A stretch of DNA of 64,000 nucleotides from a virus, in the IMG/VR virus record IMGVR_UViG_3300049216_000067; one strand, written 5' to 3'. A program made the position numbers and the translations under genes. The notes beneath the pieces were generated by a model. It saw nothing but the letters and a program-made list of their open reading frames with translations. It had not been told where the DNA came from and searched no databases. This document shows, in pieces, positions 3,550 to 53,814 of the stretch; the stretch's first letter is position 1; every line of letters starts with the position of its first letter.

Positions 3550-3644
3550 TATGAAAGACCTTTATTATTTTTATTGTGGTCACGAAATTCATAATGAATA
3601 GAAACCGTCTAAGTAACTATAATACCTAATAGGATATTAACACT

Positions 3645-6886: not shown

Positions 6887-7879
6887 TTATAGGGCTACTC
6901 CGAACTCCTGTAATTTACGGTGCATTTTCATAATAACACCGTGCATGATGTCCATCTGCTTGTCAAAGCGTGCCCCAAGGTAGATCTTTGATAGGTCGAG
7001 ATATTGAATCTCATCATCCTCAAAACCGAATCCAACCCCAGGAATCGCTGAATCGATCTGTGGATCTCTACCGGTAGGAGGAATCTCTGTGTTATACCAA
7101 ACCGCCCAACGACGCAAATCTTCCAAAGTCGCAGCAAAATTCTTTTTCCTTAATTCTGTGTGAATGCTTGCCAACTGAAAGAATGTTCTGACACGCCCAA
7201 GATCGGCTTTGTTGTTTGCTTTTGCTGCGTTCCTAGTCAACTGTCTGTAATGGTTCAGAACAGCTTTTGATGTTATTTGCTCAACACTACGAATAGGAAA
7301 ATGATTGATCCTAATACCTGAATAGTAGTCAGGTACAATCAAACCGTTATCTAGTCTTTTCCACTCATGATTACCATGCGTGATCTTCACATGTGGCGCA
7401 CGATTCCGATCAATGATCGCTTTGTAAGTAATATGATTCTCGTTTTCCAATGGATTGAACACGGTGTATAAAGGGTTTTTGTGTTCAAAATAATCCAAAC
7501 TTGTCGGCACCCAAGATCGCCACATGGCCTTTGGAACAAGGTGTTTTGGTGTTCTCTCTAATTTCTCTAGGATATCGTCTTTGGTCTCTTCGAGAAATTC
7601 ATCAGCATCCAAAAACATAAACCAATCATATTGACCATTGGCATTGATGGATCGAAGGGCATTCGTGACTAGACCGTCCTGATTGTAGGTGTTATCACCA
7701 TCAAATGTGGTGCTAATTGGTAAACCTTCTTGTTTGAGTTTATTGAGAATGTAAGCGGTCGCATCAACACTGTTGTTGTCAATGATATAAATGTGATCGA
7801 AAATACGACTGTTGATTCGAACAAACAACTCAATAATATCGCATTCATCACGGACCTGTGTGATGCAAGCTATTTTCAT
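6887..7879 (-). CDS. Glycosyltransferase family 2-like
   Basis: VRDECDII, IIDNNSVD and FLDADEF (DxD) motifs; HFPIRS. Confidence 0.8.
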   Translation of the reverse strand: MKIACITQVRDECDIIELFVRINSRIFDHIYIIDNNSVDATAYILNKLKQEGLPISTTFDGDNTYNQDGLVTNALRSINANGQYDWFMFLDADEFLEETKDDILEKLERTPKHLVPKAMWRSWVPTSLDYFEHKNPLYTVFNPLENENHITYKAIIDRNRAPHVKITHGNHEWKRLDNGLIVPDYYSGIRINHFPIRSVEQITSKAVLNHYRQLTRNAAKANNKADLGRVRTFFQLASIHTELRKKNFAATLEDLRRWAVWYNTEIPPTGRDPQIDSAIPGVGFGFEDDEIQYLDLSKIYLGARFDKQMDIMHGVIMKMHRKLQEFGVAL

Positions 7880-29335: not shown

Positions 29336-31117
29336 TTAATTATGGGTAGGGTTCGCAGTATTTCCCGTTGTCAAGAACTGCTTTACAAACACACCGTATC
29401 CATCACAAGGTGTCGCATTGGTATCCTTAAGCAAATTGTTGTCTGGTTCACCAGTTACACAGAATGCCCAAGCTATTGTACCAATTTTATTTGCTTTTGC
29501 AAAAGTTGTGATTGCTGAAGCGAAAGGTGCTCCGACAGTATTGGCAGCATTATGATCACCATATTCAGTAATCATTACTGGATAACCAGCTGCTTTAATG
29601 TCAAGTACCCACTCGTAACAAGTTCCCTTAATACCAGTAGTTGGACTTACAGAATTGTTGGCACCGTAATTAGCAAGTGTGTAAGCCGGTGTTCCCCATG
29701 TAGTACCAAACGTTGGATATGCATGCCAATCAGCAAAAATGTTCTTAAGAGGATCTGTTGGAACATTAGTCAACCATGCTGAGTGATCTTGAGCATATGA
29801 ACGATCAGAAACAGAAATTGGACCGGTAAATCCTGCATTACGAGCAGCAGTAATCATGGTTTGAAACCCACAGACTTCCCAAGTTTCAGTGATAGTGAAA
29901 TCGGCACCGGCATCTGAATTGTTAGAGAACCTACCACAGGTTCCACCAAGCTTTTGAACAACACCGACATCAGATGGAACAACAGGACCAAAACTATCCA
30001 AGAAAGGCTCATTGAAACAGCCCAAAATCACATTAGTGAACTTACTGTAACGAGTTGCAATTTCGGCAAACGCTACAGGGCTGGTTGATGCATCAGAAAA
30101 TGAACCTTGACCTTGTGGTGCCAAATACGCACCATTAGGGTAATTAGGAATAGTCTTAAGGAAAGGAGCAGACCAATGTTGCTCGATGATAATGTAGAAA
30201 CCTGCCGCAGTGTAGGCCAAAACTGCTTGGTCTAGAACTGTTGGATAGATTCCAGCAGGATCAGCTGGCATAAGCTTTACGCCTTCACCATCGACACAAA
30301 CCAAACCTAACCAGCTTGCAGTGTTGTATGGAATACGAACGATGTTGACGCCCCATTCTTGTAACAATGCAACCGGTGGTAATCCTGGGAATCCAGAATC
30401 ACCCCAATAATTAGAACCATCCCAATCTTGAATTGCAGTATTTTCGAGACCTGATACGTTAACACCATTAGGGACAATTTCTGTTCCGTTTTGATCAACG
30501 AATGTATTACCACTCACCTTAATAAATTTCATACCGGTTGTTGGTGGAGTCAAAGGTGTAATAGTACGTACAGGAATTGAAGTACTTGCTACAAGTGTTG
30601 AATTAGAAGTATTTGCTACCGGAGTTGGTGCAGTGTTAGGAGTTGGAACTGGAGTAGGTGCTGGTGTGCCGGTAACTGTAAATTGACTGTTGTCGAATGC
30701 CCAGGTAATAGGAGATCCTACAGCAATGCCGCCTGTAACCGCACCAGATGGCACTGTAGCCACAATCTGAGAATCAGATACGATCTTAGTAGGTGCAAAT
30801 TGTAACCCGCCAATCTTAACCGCATTGGCTTGAGTGAAACCCGTTCCATTAATCGTAAATTGGGTTCCAATACCACCAGTTGTTGGAGCAAAACTGGTGA
30901 TAGATAGGGCATTAGCCACTGGAGTTGTGTTAGGTGTAGGTGTCGTATTTGCAACTGGGGTAGTGTTAGCTACAGGAGTTGTATTTCCTACAGGTGTCGT
31001 ATTTGCAACTGGCGTGTTTGACGCCGGTTGTGGACCTTGCAATATAATTACATTACCAGAATTTAAAGCAGCAAGATCTGCCGCACTGAGAGTGAGCGTT
31101 AATACTGAACCTGTCAT
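29336..31117 (-). CDS. GH5-family glycoside hydrolase with IPT/TIG domain and Pro/Thr linkers
   Basis: GVNVSGLE, IVRIPYN, FNEP (acid/base), DWHAY and ITEYG (nucleophile); SITSFAPTTG...FTINGTGF IPT motif; (PVANTT)n linker. Confidence 0.85.
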   Translation of the reverse strand: MTGSVLTLTLSAADLAALNSGNVIILQGPQPASNTPVANTTPVGNTTPVANTTPVANTTPTPNTTPVANALSITSFAPTTGGIGTQFTINGTGFTQANAVKIGGLQFAPTKIVSDSQIVATVPSGAVTGGIAVGSPITWAFDNSQFTVTGTPAPTPVPTPNTAPTPVANTSNSTLVASTSIPVRTITPLTPPTTGMKFIKVSGNTFVDQNGTEIVPNGVNVSGLENTAIQDWDGSNYWGDSGFPGLPPVALLQEWGVNIVRIPYNTASWLGLVCVDGEGVKLMPADPAGIYPTVLDQAVLAYTAAGFYIIIEQHWSAPFLKTIPNYPNGAYLAPQGQGSFSDASTSPVAFAEIATRYSKFTNVILGCFNEPFLDSFGPVVPSDVGVVQKLGGTCGRFSNNSDAGADFTITETWEVCGFQTMITAARNAGFTGPISVSDRSYAQDHSAWLTNVPTDPLKNIFADWHAYPTFGTTWGTPAYTLANYGANNSVSPTTGIKGTCYEWVLDIKAAGYPVMITEYGDHNAANTVGAPFASAITTFAKANKIGTIAWAFCVTGEPDNNLLKDTNATPCDGYGVFVKQFLTTGNTANPTHN

Positions 31118-31496
31118 TTATTATTCTCCTAAAGATTACCATTCGTTCATGTCGCACCTCAAGCAATATTCTTTGTTGCCGCGACCATGAATGCATACCG
31201 GATTATGTATCGTTGCATCAGATTCAGCGTTTTTCTTCGGTTTAATGAACCGAAAAATTGCAGCGATAATAAGTCCAGTGACGGTTATTACCCACGCTGC
31301 GGTGTCTAAAACTGAAGGTTCTGGTCCCATTAACATAATTGTTTCTCCCGTTTGGTAGATGACAATCAAATTATGCAACAATTTCTAACCAGAATCAAAT
31401 GGTATTTAGGCTCAAAGGGTAACCCTGTTTCCAAGGTCACCGATTGCCTGACTTTTTTTCGACCATAACGAATGCTCCTAATAGGATTGGTGTCAA

Positions 31497-42564: not shown

Positions 42565-43421
42565 TACTGTTCCTCCTATACAACTAGGATCACTTTAATC
42601 TTAAAGAATTAAGATGTCAAGCAAGATGCGCAGCGCAAATCCAGCAACGATCAAAATTGCAACACCAAACAGAAATGCGTCTAGATCATTCATATGGCTA
42701 ACGTTCCATTGACATCTAGAATTTTCTTGTCAATCTCGGCAATCTTCTGCTCGATTTCATCTAGAACACTTTCAACCCTAATAAGACCGATTTCTGAATC
42801 GTGGATCAATGTGTACCTACCATTGTCGATAACATTGTTAATTTTATTAATGGTATTGGTCATAGATATGGCTCCAACTTCCATATATCTGGAATGTGTA
42901 TAATCATGAAGTTCGAGTATTTTGTGTTCAATTAAATAATACATTGTTCTGTATCCTCAGTTTGTTTAGATACTTCTATCATAGCAGAAAGATCTTTAAT
43001 ATTCATATTTGATGTTCCACGATTGACAATTTGTGATGTTCAAGATGACAAGATCTGCATAACCACTTGACTGTATGAGGATCGTTATAATCTTCGTGAT
43101 GTGCTTGACTCTTTGGGTCATCACACATCTCACAGGCTTTCTTAATAATATGGCCACGTTTTAATAAGCCATCTAAATCACCGTGTTCTTATTACGGTCC
43201 TATTATCCCAGCGAACCTTTTAAGACTCAAAATTTTATTTTTAATTTTTTGAAACGGACTTATTAAGAAACGTGCAGCAGCGAACCTTTAAGAACAATCC
43301 TATTAAAATTTTTAAAATTAAAGAGAGCAACTAACGAAGGTACCCCGAACAGAGAGTAGAAGCCACTCCCCGGATGGGACCCAGAAACACTGTATTTTTG
43401 ACATAATAGGATTGGACATAT

Positions 43422-43564
43422 GCTCAGCACATGTGACATATGCTGTCGCATGGCTCAGCACATGTGACATATGCTGTCGCATGGCTCAGCACATGTGACA
43501 TATGCTGTCGCATGGCTCAGCACATGTGACATATGCTGTCGCATGGCTCAGCACATGTGACATA
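43422..43564. repeat. Perfect 31-bp tandem repeat, about 4.6 copies
   Basis: Unit GCTCAGCACATGTGACATATGCTGTCGCATG at 43422, 43453, 43484, 43515 and a partial copy at 43546. Confidence 0.97.
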
Positions 43565-43630
43565 AGAGTCAAGTATTAAAACTGTGACACAGTAAGCACT
43601 AATAGCACTCCATTACAATGCATTATGGTT

Positions 43631-44194
43631 AATAGGAACTTGTCCGGACGGACATAGGGCTTGACAATACGATATTGTGACGCACAGCACAGAATAGTTC
43701 CTATTAGGTGGGCTAATAAGACTGTCTAATGTAACATATTGTGTTTCTCACACTTGACACGCGACTGTCAATCATTAATAGGACATAACATAGCTGTGTG
43801 CTGATAACGTGATGCACATCACAGATTATACAAATAGGAACTTGTCCGGACGGACATGGGGCTTGACATTATAAAAGTGTGAACCAGCGCACAGTAACGG
43901 CCTACGGCACGTAGGGATTAGTCCTATTAGTGCGCTCGGTGGACACTGCCTCAGTATGAAATTAATTAATAATAAGGCATAATAGCATGAATAGAATTCA
44001 TGTCGTTATTCGTTTGGGCTAGACTAGCTTCTATATCAAAGGGTTAATAGCAATAGGACAGCATAAGACGCTATTAGAGCCGATCTAATAGGAAAGGTAA
44101 TAAAGGGGCAGGGATAGACTGAAAGCCGCTATAAAGCGATCCTATTAGAATCAAATTGAACATAATCTTAATAGGAACTTGTCCGGACGGACAT
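43631..44194 (+). repeat. Three exact 25-bp direct repeats AATAGGAACTTGTCCGGACGGACAT
   Basis: At 43631-43655, 43833-43857 and 44170-44194. Confidence 0.95.
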
Positions 44195-44215
44195 AGGATT
44201 GTGGGGGGGGGACAC

Positions 44216-44241
44216 AAAAAAGCCCTGACTGGCAGGGCTTT
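44216..44241 (-). terminator. Intrinsic terminator at the left end of the island
   Basis: AAAGCCCTG-CCAGT-CAGGGCTTTTT. Confidence 0.75.
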
Positions 44242-44296
44242 GGTTAAGACTCACGGACGTTTCGTCTGTGATAAGACTCACGGCAGAGAGGGTTTC

Positions 44297-44617
44297 TTAG
44301 CGGTCAAACTCCATGAAACCGACACTAGCCACGACATAGGACCGATAGCCGGTCTCGGTCTCGATGATGAGGATATCGCCGACACTGGTAGAGCGTGCCC
44401 ATTCCATACCGTGGTCACGCGAACCAAAGAAGTTAACACCCATGTTTTCCCACCATAGTGATTCAATCGTGTTAGTCAGTTCGTATGCCTTGCTGAGCGA
44501 ATCAGTCTCAACGGTAGCCACAAGCTTGTAGTCGCGCATAATCGTGGTGACTGAGGCGCGAAAGTCTTTCGGGACTACGAAAGTCTGGTTATTGGCATGC
44601 CAGACTTGAATTGACAT
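44297..44617 (-). CDS. YodL-like domain protein
   Basis: YKLVATV...AYELTN...RSTSVGDI...YVVASVGF; likely start MSIQ after AGGAG. Confidence 0.65.
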   Translation of the reverse strand: MSIQVWHANNQTFVVPKDFRASVTTIMRDYKLVATVETDSLSKAYELTNTIESLWWENMGVNFFGSRDHGMEWARSTSVGDILIIETETGYRSYVVASVGFMEFDR

Positions 44618-44676
44618 AATAGGATTCTCCTTTGGGTTATTGCTGCAAACGGTTCGTTTCGGTTCTAGAGTGACTA

Positions 44677-45598
44677 TCATGAATGCGACTCCAGGCTATC
44701 AATCGCATAGTCCGCGTTCATGCTCTCAGCCAATTCGATTGCCTCAAAATCATAGAATTCCTGAGAGCCTATCACCGCGTTAGTGAGTTCACTCCAAACG
44801 ACAAATTTGCCGTCGCCTACGGAGCGAACCTGATACGGACCATTTAGTCTTTTGTTGCCCATGCTCTGTATCTCCTTTGATGAATCGACCTAATAGGATC
44901 ATGCAAGGGGCATGCCAATAGCAAACAAAACAATCAGGGCGCTAATAGGATCATTCTACTAGCGTGACCCTGACAAATTTTGTCAGTCTGTGACGGTTTC
45001 AGCCCTTTAGCGTCGATAGCTGCCAGTGTCGGTGACAGCAACGTAACAGGCGACGATTGCGGCAAACATTAAGAACATTGACATATGGTGTACTCCTTTT
45101 TAGACAGTTTTGGACAATGAAACAATGTCAGTATCGTTTGACACTACATCGACGCGGCTTAAACCCGTGTAAAGAAATTTTTCCTTAATAATACGGTTCA
45201 TTGCGCGGATTGCAGCGTTGCGCGTCGATGCCTCAATGCAAACAATGATGTTCCCGCTTGCATCGTAGCCAATGGCATCATAAGTCTCGGTAGAGTCATA
45301 ATCGCCTGACATATGGTGTACTCCTTTAAGTGAGAGTGATTTAACTTAATAGCTATTCGCGCCCATAGTCCCAGTCACCATGTTGCATCGCGTCTGCGGC
45401 ATCTGCCTCGCCCTCGCGATAGGCGTCGATAATATCCCGGACGGCAATCTCCGGACTGCAATTGTACGAATTGACATACTCGCACGCTTCCATAAACAGG
45501 GTTTCCATGTCCAAGTGATCCGGAAGCAACGCATCTTTAATGATGAGCATGATTGCCGCGTTTCGCGCTTGTATCGACTGGTATACCGTGTCCGACAT
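44677..45598 (-). CDS. Small early-type ORFs (44677-44862; 45007-45084; 45100-45312; 45353-45598)
   Basis: Strong AAGGAG RBSs; leader AAAGGAGTACACCATATGTCA duplicated before two of them. Confidence 0.65.
44902..44918 (-). promoter_or_regulatory. sigma54 (-24/-12) promoter P1
   Basis: TTGGCATGCCCCTTGCA; TGACA-AATTT-TGTCA at 44971-44985. Confidence 0.8.
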
Positions 45599-45637
45599 GC
45601 TTTGTACTCCTTTGGAATTGATCCGTAGCTAGGATCA

Positions 45638-45654
45638 TGCAAGGGGCATGCCAA
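45638..45654 (-). promoter_or_regulatory. sigma54 promoter P2
   Basis: TTGGCATGCCCCTTGCA; TGACG-TAAAT-TGTCA at 45705-45719. Confidence 0.8.
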
Positions 45655-45858: not shown

Positions 45859-46914
45859 ATGTCACATCAGATTGCTAATCAAGCCAATGGTCAAGCTGCT
45901 GCGGTATTCAGTGCCTTAGAGGGCGCTGGCTGGACAGGTCTCGGTCAAGAGATTCCGGCAGACATGGCCAATGATCCCCGCGCCATTGCCAAATTGTGCG
46001 GCGCTAACTTCACTGTTGAAAAACGAGAATGCTACTTTAAGAGTGCTGAAGGCACCTATAAGGCCGCGCGCGGAAAGGATGTGTTAGTCCGCACCGATAC
46101 GGATCGCATGCTGAGTGTCGTGTCCGACAATCGCTATCATGTCACTAATCGTCAGCCTGTCGATATCTTCGAAGCTTTCCGCGACGAACTGGCACAGAAT
46201 AATCTGACAATCTCGCATGGTGCCGTGCTCCGAGGTGGCGCTGATATCGTCGTTTGCGCCTTGCTTCCCTCAGAGTTTGATATCGTGGTAGGCAACGGTG
46301 ACCGAATCAAGCAATACGTCACCGCTAGCACGGGCTACAATGGCCACGGCACGCGCGTCACTAAGTCAGGCTATCGCGTCGTGTGCGCTAACACGCATGC
46401 CGCGAACATTGCGGATGCTGAGGCAAAGGATAAAATCCGCACCATTCGCGCTAGCACGCAATTGGAGCGCGATTCTATCGCTAACCTGATTGTCGATGTG
46501 AAAAAGCTTGTGGACGCAGAGCGCGCGACCTTCGATGCCATGGCCAATACTCGCATGTCTAACGAAGATGTAGCGCGCTACTTCGCGGATGTGCTGGAAT
46601 TCAACATCGCGGATCTGAACCGTACCAATGCGAACGGCAAGAAACTCGTTAGCACTAAAACTCAAAACATCGTGAATCAATTGCTTGCGAGCTATGCGAA
46701 TGCTCCGGGCGCGGACATGGCCATGGGGACCGCATGGGGCGCATTCAACGCGGTGACCTACTACGCGACGCATCTTAAGACTGTGCGCGATACCAGCGGT
46801 TCAGGTGAGTCTGCGGCTCGCGTCGCGTCTAACCTGAATGGGGACGCGGCTCAAATGAAATTGCGTGCCTTGCAGCTAGCGGCAAGCTACTCGGATATCG
46901 CAGTAGCCGCGTAA
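45859..46914 (+). CDS. DUF932 / TIGR03299-family phage-plasmid protein, copy A
   Basis: WTGLG, LVRTDT, LRGG, RVVCANT and GTAWGAFNAVT motifs; start MSHQI after AAGGAG. Confidence 0.85.
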   Translation: MSHQIANQANGQAAAVFSALEGAGWTGLGQEIPADMANDPRAIAKLCGANFTVEKRECYFKSAEGTYKAARGKDVLVRTDTDRMLSVVSDNRYHVTNRQPVDIFEAFRDELAQNNLTISHGAVLRGGADIVVCALLPSEFDIVVGNGDRIKQYVTASTGYNGHGTRVTKSGYRVVCANTHAANIADAEAKDKIRTIRASTQLERDSIANLIVDVKKLVDAERATFDAMANTRMSNEDVARYFADVLEFNIADLNRTNANGKKLVSTKTQNIVNQLLASYANAPGADMAMGTAWGAFNAVTYYATHLKTVRDTSGSGESAARVASNLNGDAAQMKLRALQLAASYSDIAVAA

Positions 46915-49377: not shown

Positions 49378-50310
49378 TTATGCGGCCTCGCGTTGTTTTA
49401 CCTTGCTAGGTCGCGTAGCGTAGCTTAGAGCTAGATCTAATGCTCTCACTTTCAATCGATTCGCATCTCCGTTCAGGTTACTAGCTGCGCGTGCTGTCTC
49501 GGTTCCGGAGCCTGTAGTATCTCGCACTGTCTTGAGATGCGTTGCATAATAGGCGACTGCCTGCAATGCGCCCCAGACTGTACCTTTAGCTAAATCGGCT
49601 CCTGGCGCATTCACATAAGACTGAGTAATAGCTTTCAATATGTTCTCAGTCTTAGTACTCACTAGCTTTGATCCTGCCTTGACTTTTCCGATATCTGCCG
49701 GATCTACATCGAGCACACTGGAAAAGTATTTTGTTATATCCTTGTTTGGCATCTCGGTATCAAATAGCAGTTTGAATGTTTGCGCCTCATCTTTAATTTG
49801 TGCCTTAATGTTTTTCATGATTTCAGGCACAGTCGATTCATCGATGCTAGTGCTAAGCGTAGCTCCCGATACCGTTCGGATTAGCCCTTTCGTCGCTCGG
49901 CTCTTATGCTTCGAATTGTAGTCCATGGTAACTACAAGAAACGACTTTATTAAATCTCCTTTGCCTACTGTGATATCGTATTCACTCGGCAATTCAGCAC
50001 AGACTGTGATTAGAGACCCGCCTTTAATTGCCGTACCGTAAGCAATCTTTAGATCGAAGTCCGCTAGATCCGTCTGTAATGCGGAAAAAATGGTATCCGG
50101 ACGGACTAGCACATCTCTACCTGGCGCTTTAGAATAGGTGCCATCAGGGTTTTTGAAAAATACCGGACGTCTTTCTACCTGAAATGATGCGCCTACCATA
50201 TCGGCAATCTTGCTTGGATTGCCTTGGATATCGGCAGGTATTACCTTTCCCATGCCATCCACATATTGACTATTTTGCGACAGCATCGCAGTAACGATTG
50301 ACTTAGACAT
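49378..50310 (-). CDS. DUF932-family paralog, copy B (diverged)
   Basis: Aligns with copy A throughout, e.g. YYATHLKTVRDT and ASNLNGDA. Confidence 0.85.
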   Translation of the reverse strand: MSKSIVTAMLSQNSQYVDGMGKVIPADIQGNPSKIADMVGASFQVERRPVFFKNPDGTYSKAPGRDVLVRPDTIFSALQTDLADFDLKIAYGTAIKGGSLITVCAELPSEYDITVGKGDLIKSFLVVTMDYNSKHKSRATKGLIRTVSGATLSTSIDESTVPEIMKNIKAQIKDEAQTFKLLFDTEMPNKDITKYFSSVLDVDPADIGKVKAGSKLVSTKTENILKAITQSYVNAPGADLAKGTVWGALQAVAYYATHLKTVRDTTGSGTETARAASNLNGDANRLKVRALDLALSYATRPSKVKQREAA

Positions 50311-50976: not shown

Positions 50977-51008
50977 TGGTTTCTCCTAGTTACTGATAAT
51001 AGGATAGA

Positions 51009-51025
51009 TGCAAGGGGCATGCCAA
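51009..51025 (-). promoter_or_regulatory. sigma54 promoter P5
   Basis: TTGGCATGCCCCTTGCA; TGACA-ATTTG-TGTCA at 51065-51079. Confidence 0.8.
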
Positions 51026-51216: not shown

Positions 51217-53814
51217 ATGAAATTCGACAAATCTCAATTCCAGTATTCTAGCAAGTACCTGACTTATGGTCCGGATCGCAAGTTCGTGGCTCGATTCAAG
51301 TACGGCTCAAAGGCATCGTTTCAGGCGTTTCTAATCAAGAATTTCACGGTTGAAGAGTACTTCAGCCTGCTTGAAACGGTGAAGGATGACGCTAGCCGTC
51401 GCACGTATGCGCCGCTGGAAGTTCTTGAACTGAAGGGTTATCTCAGTGACAATTGCAAGCGTGCTTGCCGTCTCGCTGGTTTCCCTCAGACTCGGGAAGG
51501 TTTTCAGGCTCTCATTCAGTCACAAATTACGGCTCGGCAATAGGAGGTTTCAATCATGGCTCAATTCAAACTCATTCAAGAAGCTGTGTTGCGTAACAGT
51601 CTCGATTGCGAATTGGATCGCGTCGAGTTGCGCATGCACGGTGGCGAATATCTCATGCCTCAGGATGTTATTCGCTGGTTCAAGAATCTCTGCGTCGGTG
51701 ATACCATCACGATTGAAGAGCGCGAAACGGAGGTAGAATAAATGAGTAACTCTTGTTTATTGCTGGTCGCTATCATAGGATGCGCTATGACTGGGCACTG
51801 GTTGCTGGTCTTGGTTTTCGCGCTTCTTTTCATGGGTTGTCGTAAGGAGAAAATCTAATGCACGGCTATTCAATTATTCCTGATATCCTTGTGATCCTGT
51901 TTCTGCTGGCTCTTGAGGATAGCTTTCGCAAGAAGTCTAAGCCGGTCGATAAGACTGAGACTGTGACTCCCGTTAAGCCCAAGTCTCGGTTTTGGTATTA
52001 CCAGGATCGCACTGGCAAGGTTCACACGGAGATTCGGCAATGAATACTAAGACAGCTGTCTATCATGGCATGTGTGATCGTTATCACAAGTACATCGACA
52101 CGGTAGGAATTGTGTATTTCTTGTTGGATCTGCCGCGAGATGCACAAGGAAATTATATTCCTGTCGGTACCACCGTGACTTTAACATACTGTTTTACTAG
52201 CAGCTATGGTAACTGGTTTCCCTCACTGGAGGTTCAGAAATGAAACGTGCCAGCTACAAACGGGCTATTGAATTCGTTGCAAATGAAGATAGTGCGGGCG
52301 ACGGCAATGCTCTCGATGCTAATGAAGTGCAATGGTTAATTACTGCGGTTCTTGTTGCTGATATTTTCGATGTACCAAACGAAAAAGTCGGCAAGGATAT
52401 CGTGGCTTATCGCAAGAAGCATCATGAAAGACATCGCTAGTATTGCTGAGGCACGCGAGCGCAAAGAGTTTATTAAACGATTAATTGAAGCTGCCAACAA
52501 AGCGAACGCATTGCGGTTTTCTCGATGGCAAGCAATAGCAAATAGGAGTAAAAGACAATGAAAATTAAATGGAAAGTTCAACCGGCTCCGACTGGTCGCT
52601 ATCGTTCATTCGAGCGACGCGGTTGGCCTAGTGGCACGATCAATGACGAGGCAGTTGCTTTTCTTCGATGTGAACATGATTACACGGCAAAGCTTGCTAA
52701 GGGTGAACCTACTTTCGATGGCACTCCACCTGTCATTAGTGTCTGGGTCGCAGATTGGACCGCTCATAATACCGGTACTCGCACGAAAAACGATACGGCT
52801 TTTGTGTGGCGTTGTCTTAAGGCTCGATTCAGTAACGTGGCTGATGCGAAAGCGGCTGCTCAAAGTTTCTTGGATTCGCATCCGAATTTTCTTCCCAATA
52901 TCCCTAAGAAGGAGTCAACCATTGAAGGTTTCTCGAATTAAAGAAGTTCGTTCTATTACAGGCTTTGGTTTGAAAGAAGCCAAAGACATGGTAGAATGTC
53001 AGTCTTTCATAGACGCGATAAAATAGGAGAAAGAAATGCCCGCATTTAGAATCGTTGCCAATAAGACTTACGCATCTGAAGCCAATGCGATCAAGGCAGC
53101 TGAAGCGAAGTTTGGCGAACAGAATCTACGCTATTTCATCATGACCGAGAAGGATGAAATAACGTATACCACTCGTTATTTTCCTGTTTTCGTCGGTGAG
53201 GCAGCTATACGTGCTGGCGTACATTTTCATTTCAACGTGATTGGATAAGGAGTAAACATGAACGAGTCTATTGATTACGGTGATATCGATTATGAGGACA
53301 AGGAAACAACTGAGTCGGTGCCGGGTGAAGTATCTGTCACTGAGACGATTCTTGTTTATGTTCCTGGCGCTGTCGGTGGCAAATGGGTTACATCCGATCC
53401 TGATGACGATGACCAGGAGTCAGTTACATTTAGCAAGGATATTCATCTTGCATTCGAGTTTACTGATATCGAGCATGCGAAACGTTCGAAGTATTTGATT
53501 GAAACGGAATTCAATATTGAGTCTCTTGTCATGGTGGAATCGAAATGATTACTAAAAAGCGTCAAATGTTGGCTGTGCCTCAGATTAACATCAACGGCAC
53601 ATCGAGAGGCGAGTTGCAAATGCAATGTCGTGAAGTTTACGATGCCCTGATTGAGGCTCAAAAGGCTCTGATGCGTATGACGCCGCATGGTCGCGACTAT
53701 CAAACCATCGGCTTTGAAACGTATGAGTTGGCTCGGTCTCAACATTTAGATAGAGTTCGGTCTATTGAACATCTTTTAGAGGAAATTCACGAAATAAGCG
53801 TGAGCCTATTGTAA
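51217..53814 (+). other. Operon of about 12 small hypothetical ORFs
   Basis: Abutting plus-strand ORFs (51217, 51556, 51858, 52040, 52240, 52558, 53036, 53258, 53545 and others) with RBSs. Confidence 0.7.
52922..53026 (+). CDS. 34-aa ribosomal protein bL12 C-terminal-domain-like peptide
   Basis: AAGGAG RBS then TTG; KVSRIKEVRSITGFGLKEAKDMVE. Confidence 0.6.
   Translation: MKVSRIKEVRSITGFGLKEAKDMVECQSFIDAIK

Follow-up and report, generated by a model that had tools for sequence, protein, structure and literature searches.

The window analysed here is a stretch of 64,000 nucleotides of viral DNA, which encodes homologues of the T4 tail sheath, portal, scaffold, major head protein, gp15, neck protein, gp16 and gp17 (recognized with PHROG and Pfam). 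All of these virion and terminase genes lie on the minus strand, and several of the late genes are preceded by the T4-type late promoter words TATAAATA. The major head protein shares 60% identity with that of cyanomyoviruses, and no cultured phage is nearer. The window belongs to an uncultured T4-like myovirus. The longest contig in the cluster containing one of the window proteins is 174,927 bases, a normal size for a T4-like genome. A megablast search with the structural region returned no match, and neither did a search of the block described below against 50,697 phage records. To our knowledge, T4-like phages related to the cyanomyoviruses lack the MotA/AsiA middle-transcription switch, and the timing of accessory-gene expression in them is poorly understood.

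Between the start of the gp18 homologue (22.5 kb) and the end of the gp17 homologue (57.5 kb) lies an accessory (hyperplastic) region of 35 kb with many small ORFs that belong to no family, and the widest gene-free gap within it is a block of ~1.1 kb (43158-44296) in which copies of the octamer TAATAGGA, hereafter the box, are concentrated. The block can be compared with that of one close relative, a single 32.9-kb IMG contig that was found through a 25-mer repeated in the block and of which the loci L001, L002 and L006 are parts. A protein-guided search of IMG/VR and metagenome contigs revealed no further close relatives, the same contig being present in both collections. The next relatives have 54-59% protein identity, a GC content of 60% and no boxes.

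The block is best read from its right edge, which is formed by a predicted strong intrinsic terminator on the minus strand (44241-44219; a 9-pair stem and a T run) that is kept in the relative. This terminator closes a minus-strand two-gene operon (44862-44297) with a sigma54-type element upstream of it at 44901-44917. Next to the terminator lies a plus-strand box with a 14-nt GC hairpin (44169-44194), which is the third copy of the 25-mer, adjoins a run of nine G and falls in a 52-nt insertion missing from the relative. Three modules follow, each with an inverted pair of boxes. Module A (44086-44147; 62 bp) is closed by a 10-bp inverted box pair, and both of its boxes are kept in the relative. 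An A/T-rich segment (43956-44006), nearly the same in the relative, contains one promoter-like match per strand, both of them consensus matches alone; the one on the minus strand has an extended -10. Module B (43776-43929; 154 bp) has its inverted box pair around the second 25-mer (43833-43857) and also contains a -35-like hexamer that lacks a usable -10; a further small hairpin (43901-43915) sits within a 23-nt insertion that abuts the box at 43922. Module C (43630-43706; 77 bp) combines an 11-bp inverted box pair, the first 25-mer and a -35-like hexamer. Modules B and C have in common a 62-nt unit, 84% identical between them, that consists of a box, a 14-nt GC hairpin and a -35-like hexamer with no usable -10; in both modules a 5-pair GC hairpin stands 5 nt ahead of the -35-like hexamer. 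CRP-like sites at 43676 and 43878, between the -35-like hexamer and the expected -10, have neither class I nor class II geometry.

The left part of the block contains a perfect tandem repeat of 31 bp in 4.6 copies (43422-43564), which is missing from the relative and each unit of which contains a near-copy of a palindrome seen beside the sigma54-type promoters. An extended -10 promoter-like site on the plus strand (43399-43411), kept in the relative, overlaps a box and faces the tandem repeat. Further left is an intact sigma70 promoter cassette on the minus strand (43198-43262) with an A/T tract upstream of the -35, a 17-nt spacer that carries a duplicated 12-mer, and a -10 overlapped by a box. 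Its predicted promoter, TTGAGT-17-GATAAT at 43230-43202, matches the consensus at 9/12 positions, and there is no stem-loop directly upstream of the cassette. A second, degenerate copy (43278-43330, minus strand) lies 69 bp upstream of the intact one and retains the 12-mer core together with a box and an A/T tract; its -10 is poor. The left edge of the block abuts the remnant of an endonuclease gene (43003-43185, minus strand) that covers only the last third of the family profile; its frame has no canonical start codon at the head, and the intact cassette runs into it. The number of promoter-like matches in the region is not above that in shuffled sequences (8 versus 8.6, and 8 versus 6.6 in a second scan), and the weak sites on both strands are therefore treated as leads only. 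Of the twelve 40-mers of the window that are richest in A/T, three fall in the block, and 40-mers as A/T-rich as its tracts also occur at several other gene junctions of the window.

The block appears to be non-coding so far as sequence can tell. None of its short ORFs matched a PHROG family, and the indels that separate it from the relative include single-base and other non-triplet changes that break these ORFs. ARAGORN found no tRNA in it. A scan of the block with Rfam 15 gave nothing above threshold; the sole match (E 0.038; 26 bits against a threshold of 70 bits) lies over the terminator.

The block might instead specify a structured non-coding RNA, either on the plus strand from 43399-43407 to a bidirectional terminator at 44219-44241, or as a minus-strand leader from ~43979, with the inverted boxes forming the closing stems. 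The promoter-like site and the terminator do flank the centre of the block, and both have been retained in the relative. Modules A and C fold more stably than shuffled sequences (z of about -3.3 to -3.5), as does a 681-nt core on both strands (z -6.6 and -4.5). However, this stability comes almost wholly from the box pairs and shows no strand preference, and in the relative the inner stems are not kept and there is no compensatory change. Boxes that stand singly elsewhere in the window have no partner to pair with, and Rfam, as noted above, provides no match. We consider such an RNA unlikely.

The most distinctive feature of the block is the box itself. TAATAGGA occurs 28 times in the window, against 1.41 copies expected from dinucleotide shuffles, none of which (0/100) reached 28, and it is the most frequent 8-mer of the 64 kb. 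This excess is confined to the exact word: a control word with the letters of the box reversed occurs once, and when one mismatch is allowed the counts are 82 for the box and 71 for the control word, as opposed to 28 and 1 for exact copies. At least 19 of the 28 copies lie in non-coding DNA, though this makes up 11% of the window (P ~2e-12), and 25 of the 28 fall within the 35-kb region between g17 and g18. The block contains 10 of the 19-22 non-coding copies, yet constitutes 16% of the non-coding DNA (P <=0.001). A preliminary description of this DNA, made by inspection, had already reported the ten exact boxes of the block, three exact 25-mers and a duplicated 12-mer. All ten boxes were recovered, five per strand, with spacings of 29-226 bp and no phasing, together with the 25-mers (at 43631, 43833 and 44170) and the 12-mer (at 43209 and 43278). 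Enrichment of the octamer over background, which that description had offered as a check, is borne out by the counts above. Seven further boxes in the block with one mismatch were absent from it, as were the 31-bp tandem repeat, the minus-strand terminator and the endonuclease remnant.

The block might also be a packaging signal, a terminus or an injection stop that delivers the neighbouring island first, as in phage T5. The only point in favour of this is that the repeats cluster where both composition and strand change. Packaging in T4-type phages is by headful, with a circularly permuted genome, no fixed end and no two-step injection of the T5 kind. The gp16 and gp17 homologues and the T4-like virion genes predict, from what is known of T4, the same headful mode and a permuted genome here, and a terminase of this type makes a packaging end unlikely. 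The block also lies mid-way in the 174,927-base contig and is internal in the contig of the relative as well. We therefore regard a terminus as extremely improbable.

Eighteen boxes lie outside the block. The earlier observation that octamers recur beside sigma54-type elements and in other intergenic gaps is correct, and its coordinates are off by no more than 1 base. Boxes overlap or follow promoter-like sites at 3627, 35891, 43198, 44617 and 41785. There are three identical sigma54-type elements, and in two of the three a box lies 3-4 nt past the -12 element. A 30-nt unit that bears a box is located between the sigma54-type elements and their upstream palindromes. The box is, in fact, what several otherwise differing repeated cassettes have in common, namely the sigma70 cassette, the sigma54-type elements, the 30-nt unit and the hairpin unit. 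At the gene junctions at 31479 and 41785 the complement of the box stands directly ahead of the ribosome-binding site, with which it could pair. Relative to transcription, the box is found in both directions. It is a dispersed cis element that coincides with or closely follows sigma70 and sigma54 promoters and also occurs at gene junctions. For most of the boxes in the central part of the block, no convincing promoter is seen alongside.

Two more familiar identities for the box were examined and rejected. It is not a -10 element in general, since the A that is essential at hexamer position 2 is present in just three or four copies, and it is not part of a T4 late promoter or of a sigma-E/ECF-type promoter, as no consistent downstream partner element was found. 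Arrays of TAATAGGA are also seen in two viral contigs, L027 and L035, and the loci compared share no protein with the window. The likeness is taken as coincidence or convergence. The box is a new, lineage-specific element.

The relative displays the same pattern. It contains 25 boxes and 2 control words, with 13 boxes in its version of the block, and the excess of boxes is therefore a property of the lineage. The genes of the two phages are 76-98% identical, the flanks of the block 97-99% and the third codon positions of the flanking genes 88%; at this level of similarity the conservation of the block and of the dispersed boxes is uninformative. Only 75% of the aligned columns of the block are identical, and no other part of the shared region is as changeable. 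The two phages differ in the block by six large indels or rearrangements, together with a gene replacement at the cassette. The relative has neither the 31-bp tandem repeat nor the 52-nt insertion with the third 25-mer nor the 23-nt hairpin insertion at box 43922; it carries boxes at five places that are box-free in the window and lacks two of the window's boxes. At its left edge, two cassettes of an A/T tract and the 12-mer each stand directly ahead of an ordinary small gene (L001 1104 and 1522) with a Shine-Dalgarno site and a start codon, and five small ORFs take the place of the window's endonuclease remnant. The window, for its part, has ~900 extra bases on the other side of the block, including a duplicated sigma54 cassette.

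Several of these differences are located at boxes. The six large events have 12 ends, and seven of these are no more than 6 nt away from a box (post hoc P 0.02), while the same test over all 29 ends in the block is not significant (P 0.13). The 14-nt hairpins, three in the window and one in the relative, sit without exception (4/4) 2-3 nt past a box and in the same orientation relative to it, at non-equivalent places in the two phages; the single box-plus-hairpin of the relative is found at the opposite box of the module C pair. A simple inversion of module C by way of its box pair does not account for this, as the sequence between the boxes has the same orientation in both phages and the hairpin alone is displaced.

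The hairpins may accordingly be suspected of being miniature mobile palindromes that spread from box to box, or the box of being the insertion or cleavage site of a homing-type endonuclease. Their constant place 2-3 nt past a box at non-corresponding positions would fit such a mobility, as would the second, different hairpin inserted directly beside box 43922 and the endonuclease gene remnant that abuts the block. On the other hand, there are only three or four copies, neither a transposase nor an intact endonuclease is present, and no clear target duplication is seen. Among 185,579 reference genomes the hairpin gave five single hits, consistent with chance, and does not constitute a repeat family. 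Gene conversion between box-bearing repeats accounts for the same pattern, and we consider mobile palindromes, or an endonuclease target, very unlikely.

The comparison also bears on the proposal that the block is a replication origin, in which the boxes would be initiator sites and the A/T tracts at 43215-43260 and 43283-43322 an unwinding element, or which would be primed from a promoter in the manner of T4 oriF and oriG. Ten sites within 1.1 kb, a predicted promoter, and the share of the window's most A/T-rich 40-mers that falls in the block are all features that an origin could have, and cumulative GC skew turns at the block. The turn at 43-44 kb, however, coincides with a switch of coding strand and is only a local minimum, not that of the window. 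The A/T tracts, in which the preliminary description had seen an unwinding element, form the upstream part of the sigma70 cassette, ahead of the -35, and recur before ordinary small genes in the relative. The same description had likened the boxes to iterons. At 8 bp, in mixed orientation and at irregular intervals they are unlike iterons, although the broader suggestion that a specific factor may read the octamer still holds, given the excess of the exact word in the window and in the relative. Furthermore, the box occurs at 18 places beyond the block, no initiator-like family was recognized among the neighbouring ORFs, and neither block nor box is found near the flanking gene in its more distant relatives. 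An origin at this site seems to us distinctly unlikely.

Our analysis suggests instead that the block is a transcription-control junction in the accessory region that is prone to recombination, rather than an origin or a genome end, and we assign this reading a probability of roughly 0.45. The strong terminator would end the sigma54-driven two-gene operon; three modules of 60-150 bp, each bracketed by inverted copies of TAATAGGA, would come next; and the A/T-tract sigma70 cassette would finally restart transcription, now of the leftward accessory genes. The modules and cassettes would represent intact and degraded promoter/stem-loop cassettes of the kind called PeSLs, which in T4-type phages are repeated within hyperplastic regions (Arbiol et al. 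2010, PMC2839356; Comeau et al. 2014, PMC4122927). The comparison with the relative shows that gain, loss or movement at this site has affected modules, hairpins, the tandem repeat and whole genes.

Two roles may be proposed for the box. Because it occurs in either orientation and the excess is limited to the exact word, we infer that a sequence-specific factor would read it on DNA, in the manner of an operator. A Pfam scan of ~48 of the window's ORFs recognized no DNA-binding domain, and no candidate reader was found there. The many copies of the box would, in addition, double as short homologies for rearrangements. The positions of the hairpins, and the seven of 12 event ends near boxes, suggest that boxes may serve as joints; their length of 8-11 bp is short for homologous recombination.

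A rather unlikely variant, a dispersed-operator system comparable to the P1 C1 sites or the mycobacteriophage stoperators and set in a lytic T4-like phage, would make the octamer the operator of a new sequence-specific DNA-binding protein of this lineage at sigma70 early and sigma54 promoters, and the block a region of nucleation or a sink for that protein. The box-binding protein, or a partner nuclease, could then make the boxes preferred joints for the shuffling of cassettes.

A recombination-prone control junction would be of interest in that the box marks promoters of two sigma classes, and the junction at which boxes are densest is also where two near-identical phages differ most. It would provide a handle on two questions in a large group of environmental phages, namely what reads the box and how accessory genes are swapped. 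If the block is merely a pile of used cassettes, it would be ordinary, and a clear case of PeSL-type plasticity outside the phages in which this was first described.

The block can be set beside several known systems. It resembles REP/BIME palindromes and MITEs in its short words with small hairpins, its inverted intergenic pairs and a copy number that varies between relatives, and differs from them in that hairpin copies are few, no transposase of the RAYT kind is present and no family emerged from the scan of host genomes. The origins of T4 offer another comparison: oriE has iterons and the RepEB protein, and oriF and oriG have a promoter with an unwinding element downstream. Like these, the block combines a promoter, short words that are repeated and A/T-rich sequence in non-coding DNA of a T4-like genome. 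Its repeats, however, are inverted as often as direct, its word is dispersed elsewhere and no initiator homologue was seen, and its A/T tracts lie upstream of the promoter, in contrast to the downstream element of oriF and oriG. Iteron origins in general have direct repeats of ~17-22 bp in the same orientation and with regular spacing, whereas the box is 8 bp long, on both strands and irregularly placed.

Dispersed operators provide a parallel for the box. The C1 operators of P1 and the stoperators of mycobacteriophage L5 are asymmetric sites of 13-17 bp, dispersed in the genomes of temperate phages and with known repressors, and the L5 stoperators keep one orientation relative to transcription. 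The box shares with both a short asymmetric word, many intergenic copies near or downstream of promoters and an over-representation of the exact word. Unlike them, it occurs in a phage that looks lytic and T4-like, with a third of its sites in one block.

The block also resembles PeSLs. It is situated in the hyperplastic region of a T4-type genome, as are 25 of the 28 boxes, and the arrangement at 43230-43202, an A/T-rich tract followed by a sigma70-like -35/N17/-10, has equivalents in the relative. Published 'degraded' forms of PeSLs have a -35 and a stem-loop and no -10 (PMC4122927), and modules B and C, with stem-loops beside -35-like hexamers and no usable -10, resemble these. A Shine-Dalgarno site and a start codon follow the cassette in the relative, while the cassette of the window meets a start-less remnant. 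PeSLs, intact and degraded, adjoin indels between close relatives (PMC2839356, PMC4122927); insertions, deletions and replacements likewise separate the two close phages at the block, with a weak statistical link to the boxes. There are also differences. The PeSL description has no counterpart of an 8-bp box that occurs in both orientations and also at sigma54-type promoters, and a canonical PeSL requires the stem-loop that is missing immediately upstream of the intact cassette. In the window, moreover, the copies are piled up in a gene-free block of 1.1 kb rather than distributed one per gene, and the lineage that carries them is nearer to the cyanomyoviruses than to the phages of the PeSL studies.

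The gene-free block contains a perfect tandem repeat (31 bp x 4.6; 43422-43564) that is not present in the close relative and is a recent expansion. Every 31-bp unit carries a near-copy of the palindrome TGACA-N5-TGTCA, which in this phage also accompanies the sigma54-type promoters, and an extended -10 promoter-like site lies 8-15 nt upstream of the repeat and is directed into it. It might serve as a series of binding sites for an activator or, alternatively, as the template of a repeat RNA. Also missing from the close relative is a minus-strand open frame at 43003-43185 that matches the phage endonuclease family phrog_2340. This frame covers only profile positions 115-163 of 171, lacks a canonical start codon at its beginning and contains a CxxC...HH...CxxC motif; it probably represents what is left of a homing-type endonuclease gene.

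Several further features surround the minus-strand gene at 44297-44617. A plus-strand sigma70 promoter-like site (44592-44620; 10/12 matches, with an extended -10) runs antisense to the first codons of this gene; its -10 overlaps a copy of the octamer box, and its sequence is conserved in the close relative. Just past the stop codon of the gene is an exact 12-bp direct repeat (44245-44256 and 44272-44283), and a run of nine G (44202-44210) separates the terminator from the first box-plus-hairpin unit. To the right, at 44650-45630, about 900 additional bases in the window contain a duplicated sigma54 cassette and two small ORFs on the minus strand; the equivalent stretch of the relative (1108-1217 of L002, a part of its contig) is about 110 bases long.

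The small genes of the GC-richer island would be driven by three sigma54-type -24/-12 elements, which are identical and on the minus strand (44901-44917, 45637-45653 and 51008-51024). Each element has a 15-bp palindrome upstream of it, and such palindromes lie at 44971, 45705, 48002 and 51065. Such elements are unusual in a T4-like phage, and no enhancer-binding protein was seen within the window. Since cyanobacteria are not known to have sigma54, the presence of these elements argues against a cyanobacterial host. As accessory cargo, the window encodes a GH5 cellulase domain within a protein of 593 residues (29336-31117), the C-terminal domain of ribosomal protein L7/L12 within one of 131 residues (52631-53026), and a pair of DUF932 proteins (45860-46914 and 49378-50310).

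The box word, extended by a G, also forms dense arrays in two unrelated viral contigs, IMGVR_UViG_3300028887_000153 (66% GC; 1440-1760 of locus L027) and IMGVR_UViG_3300038675_000703 (6898-7179 of locus L035), and the loci examined there have no proteins in common with the window. One of these arrays is built of tandem 10-bp copies, which form two sets of opposite orientation on either side of an A/T-rich promoter-like core, an arrangement that resembles a plasmid parC site. In the other, a palindromic form recurs about every 45-51 bp.
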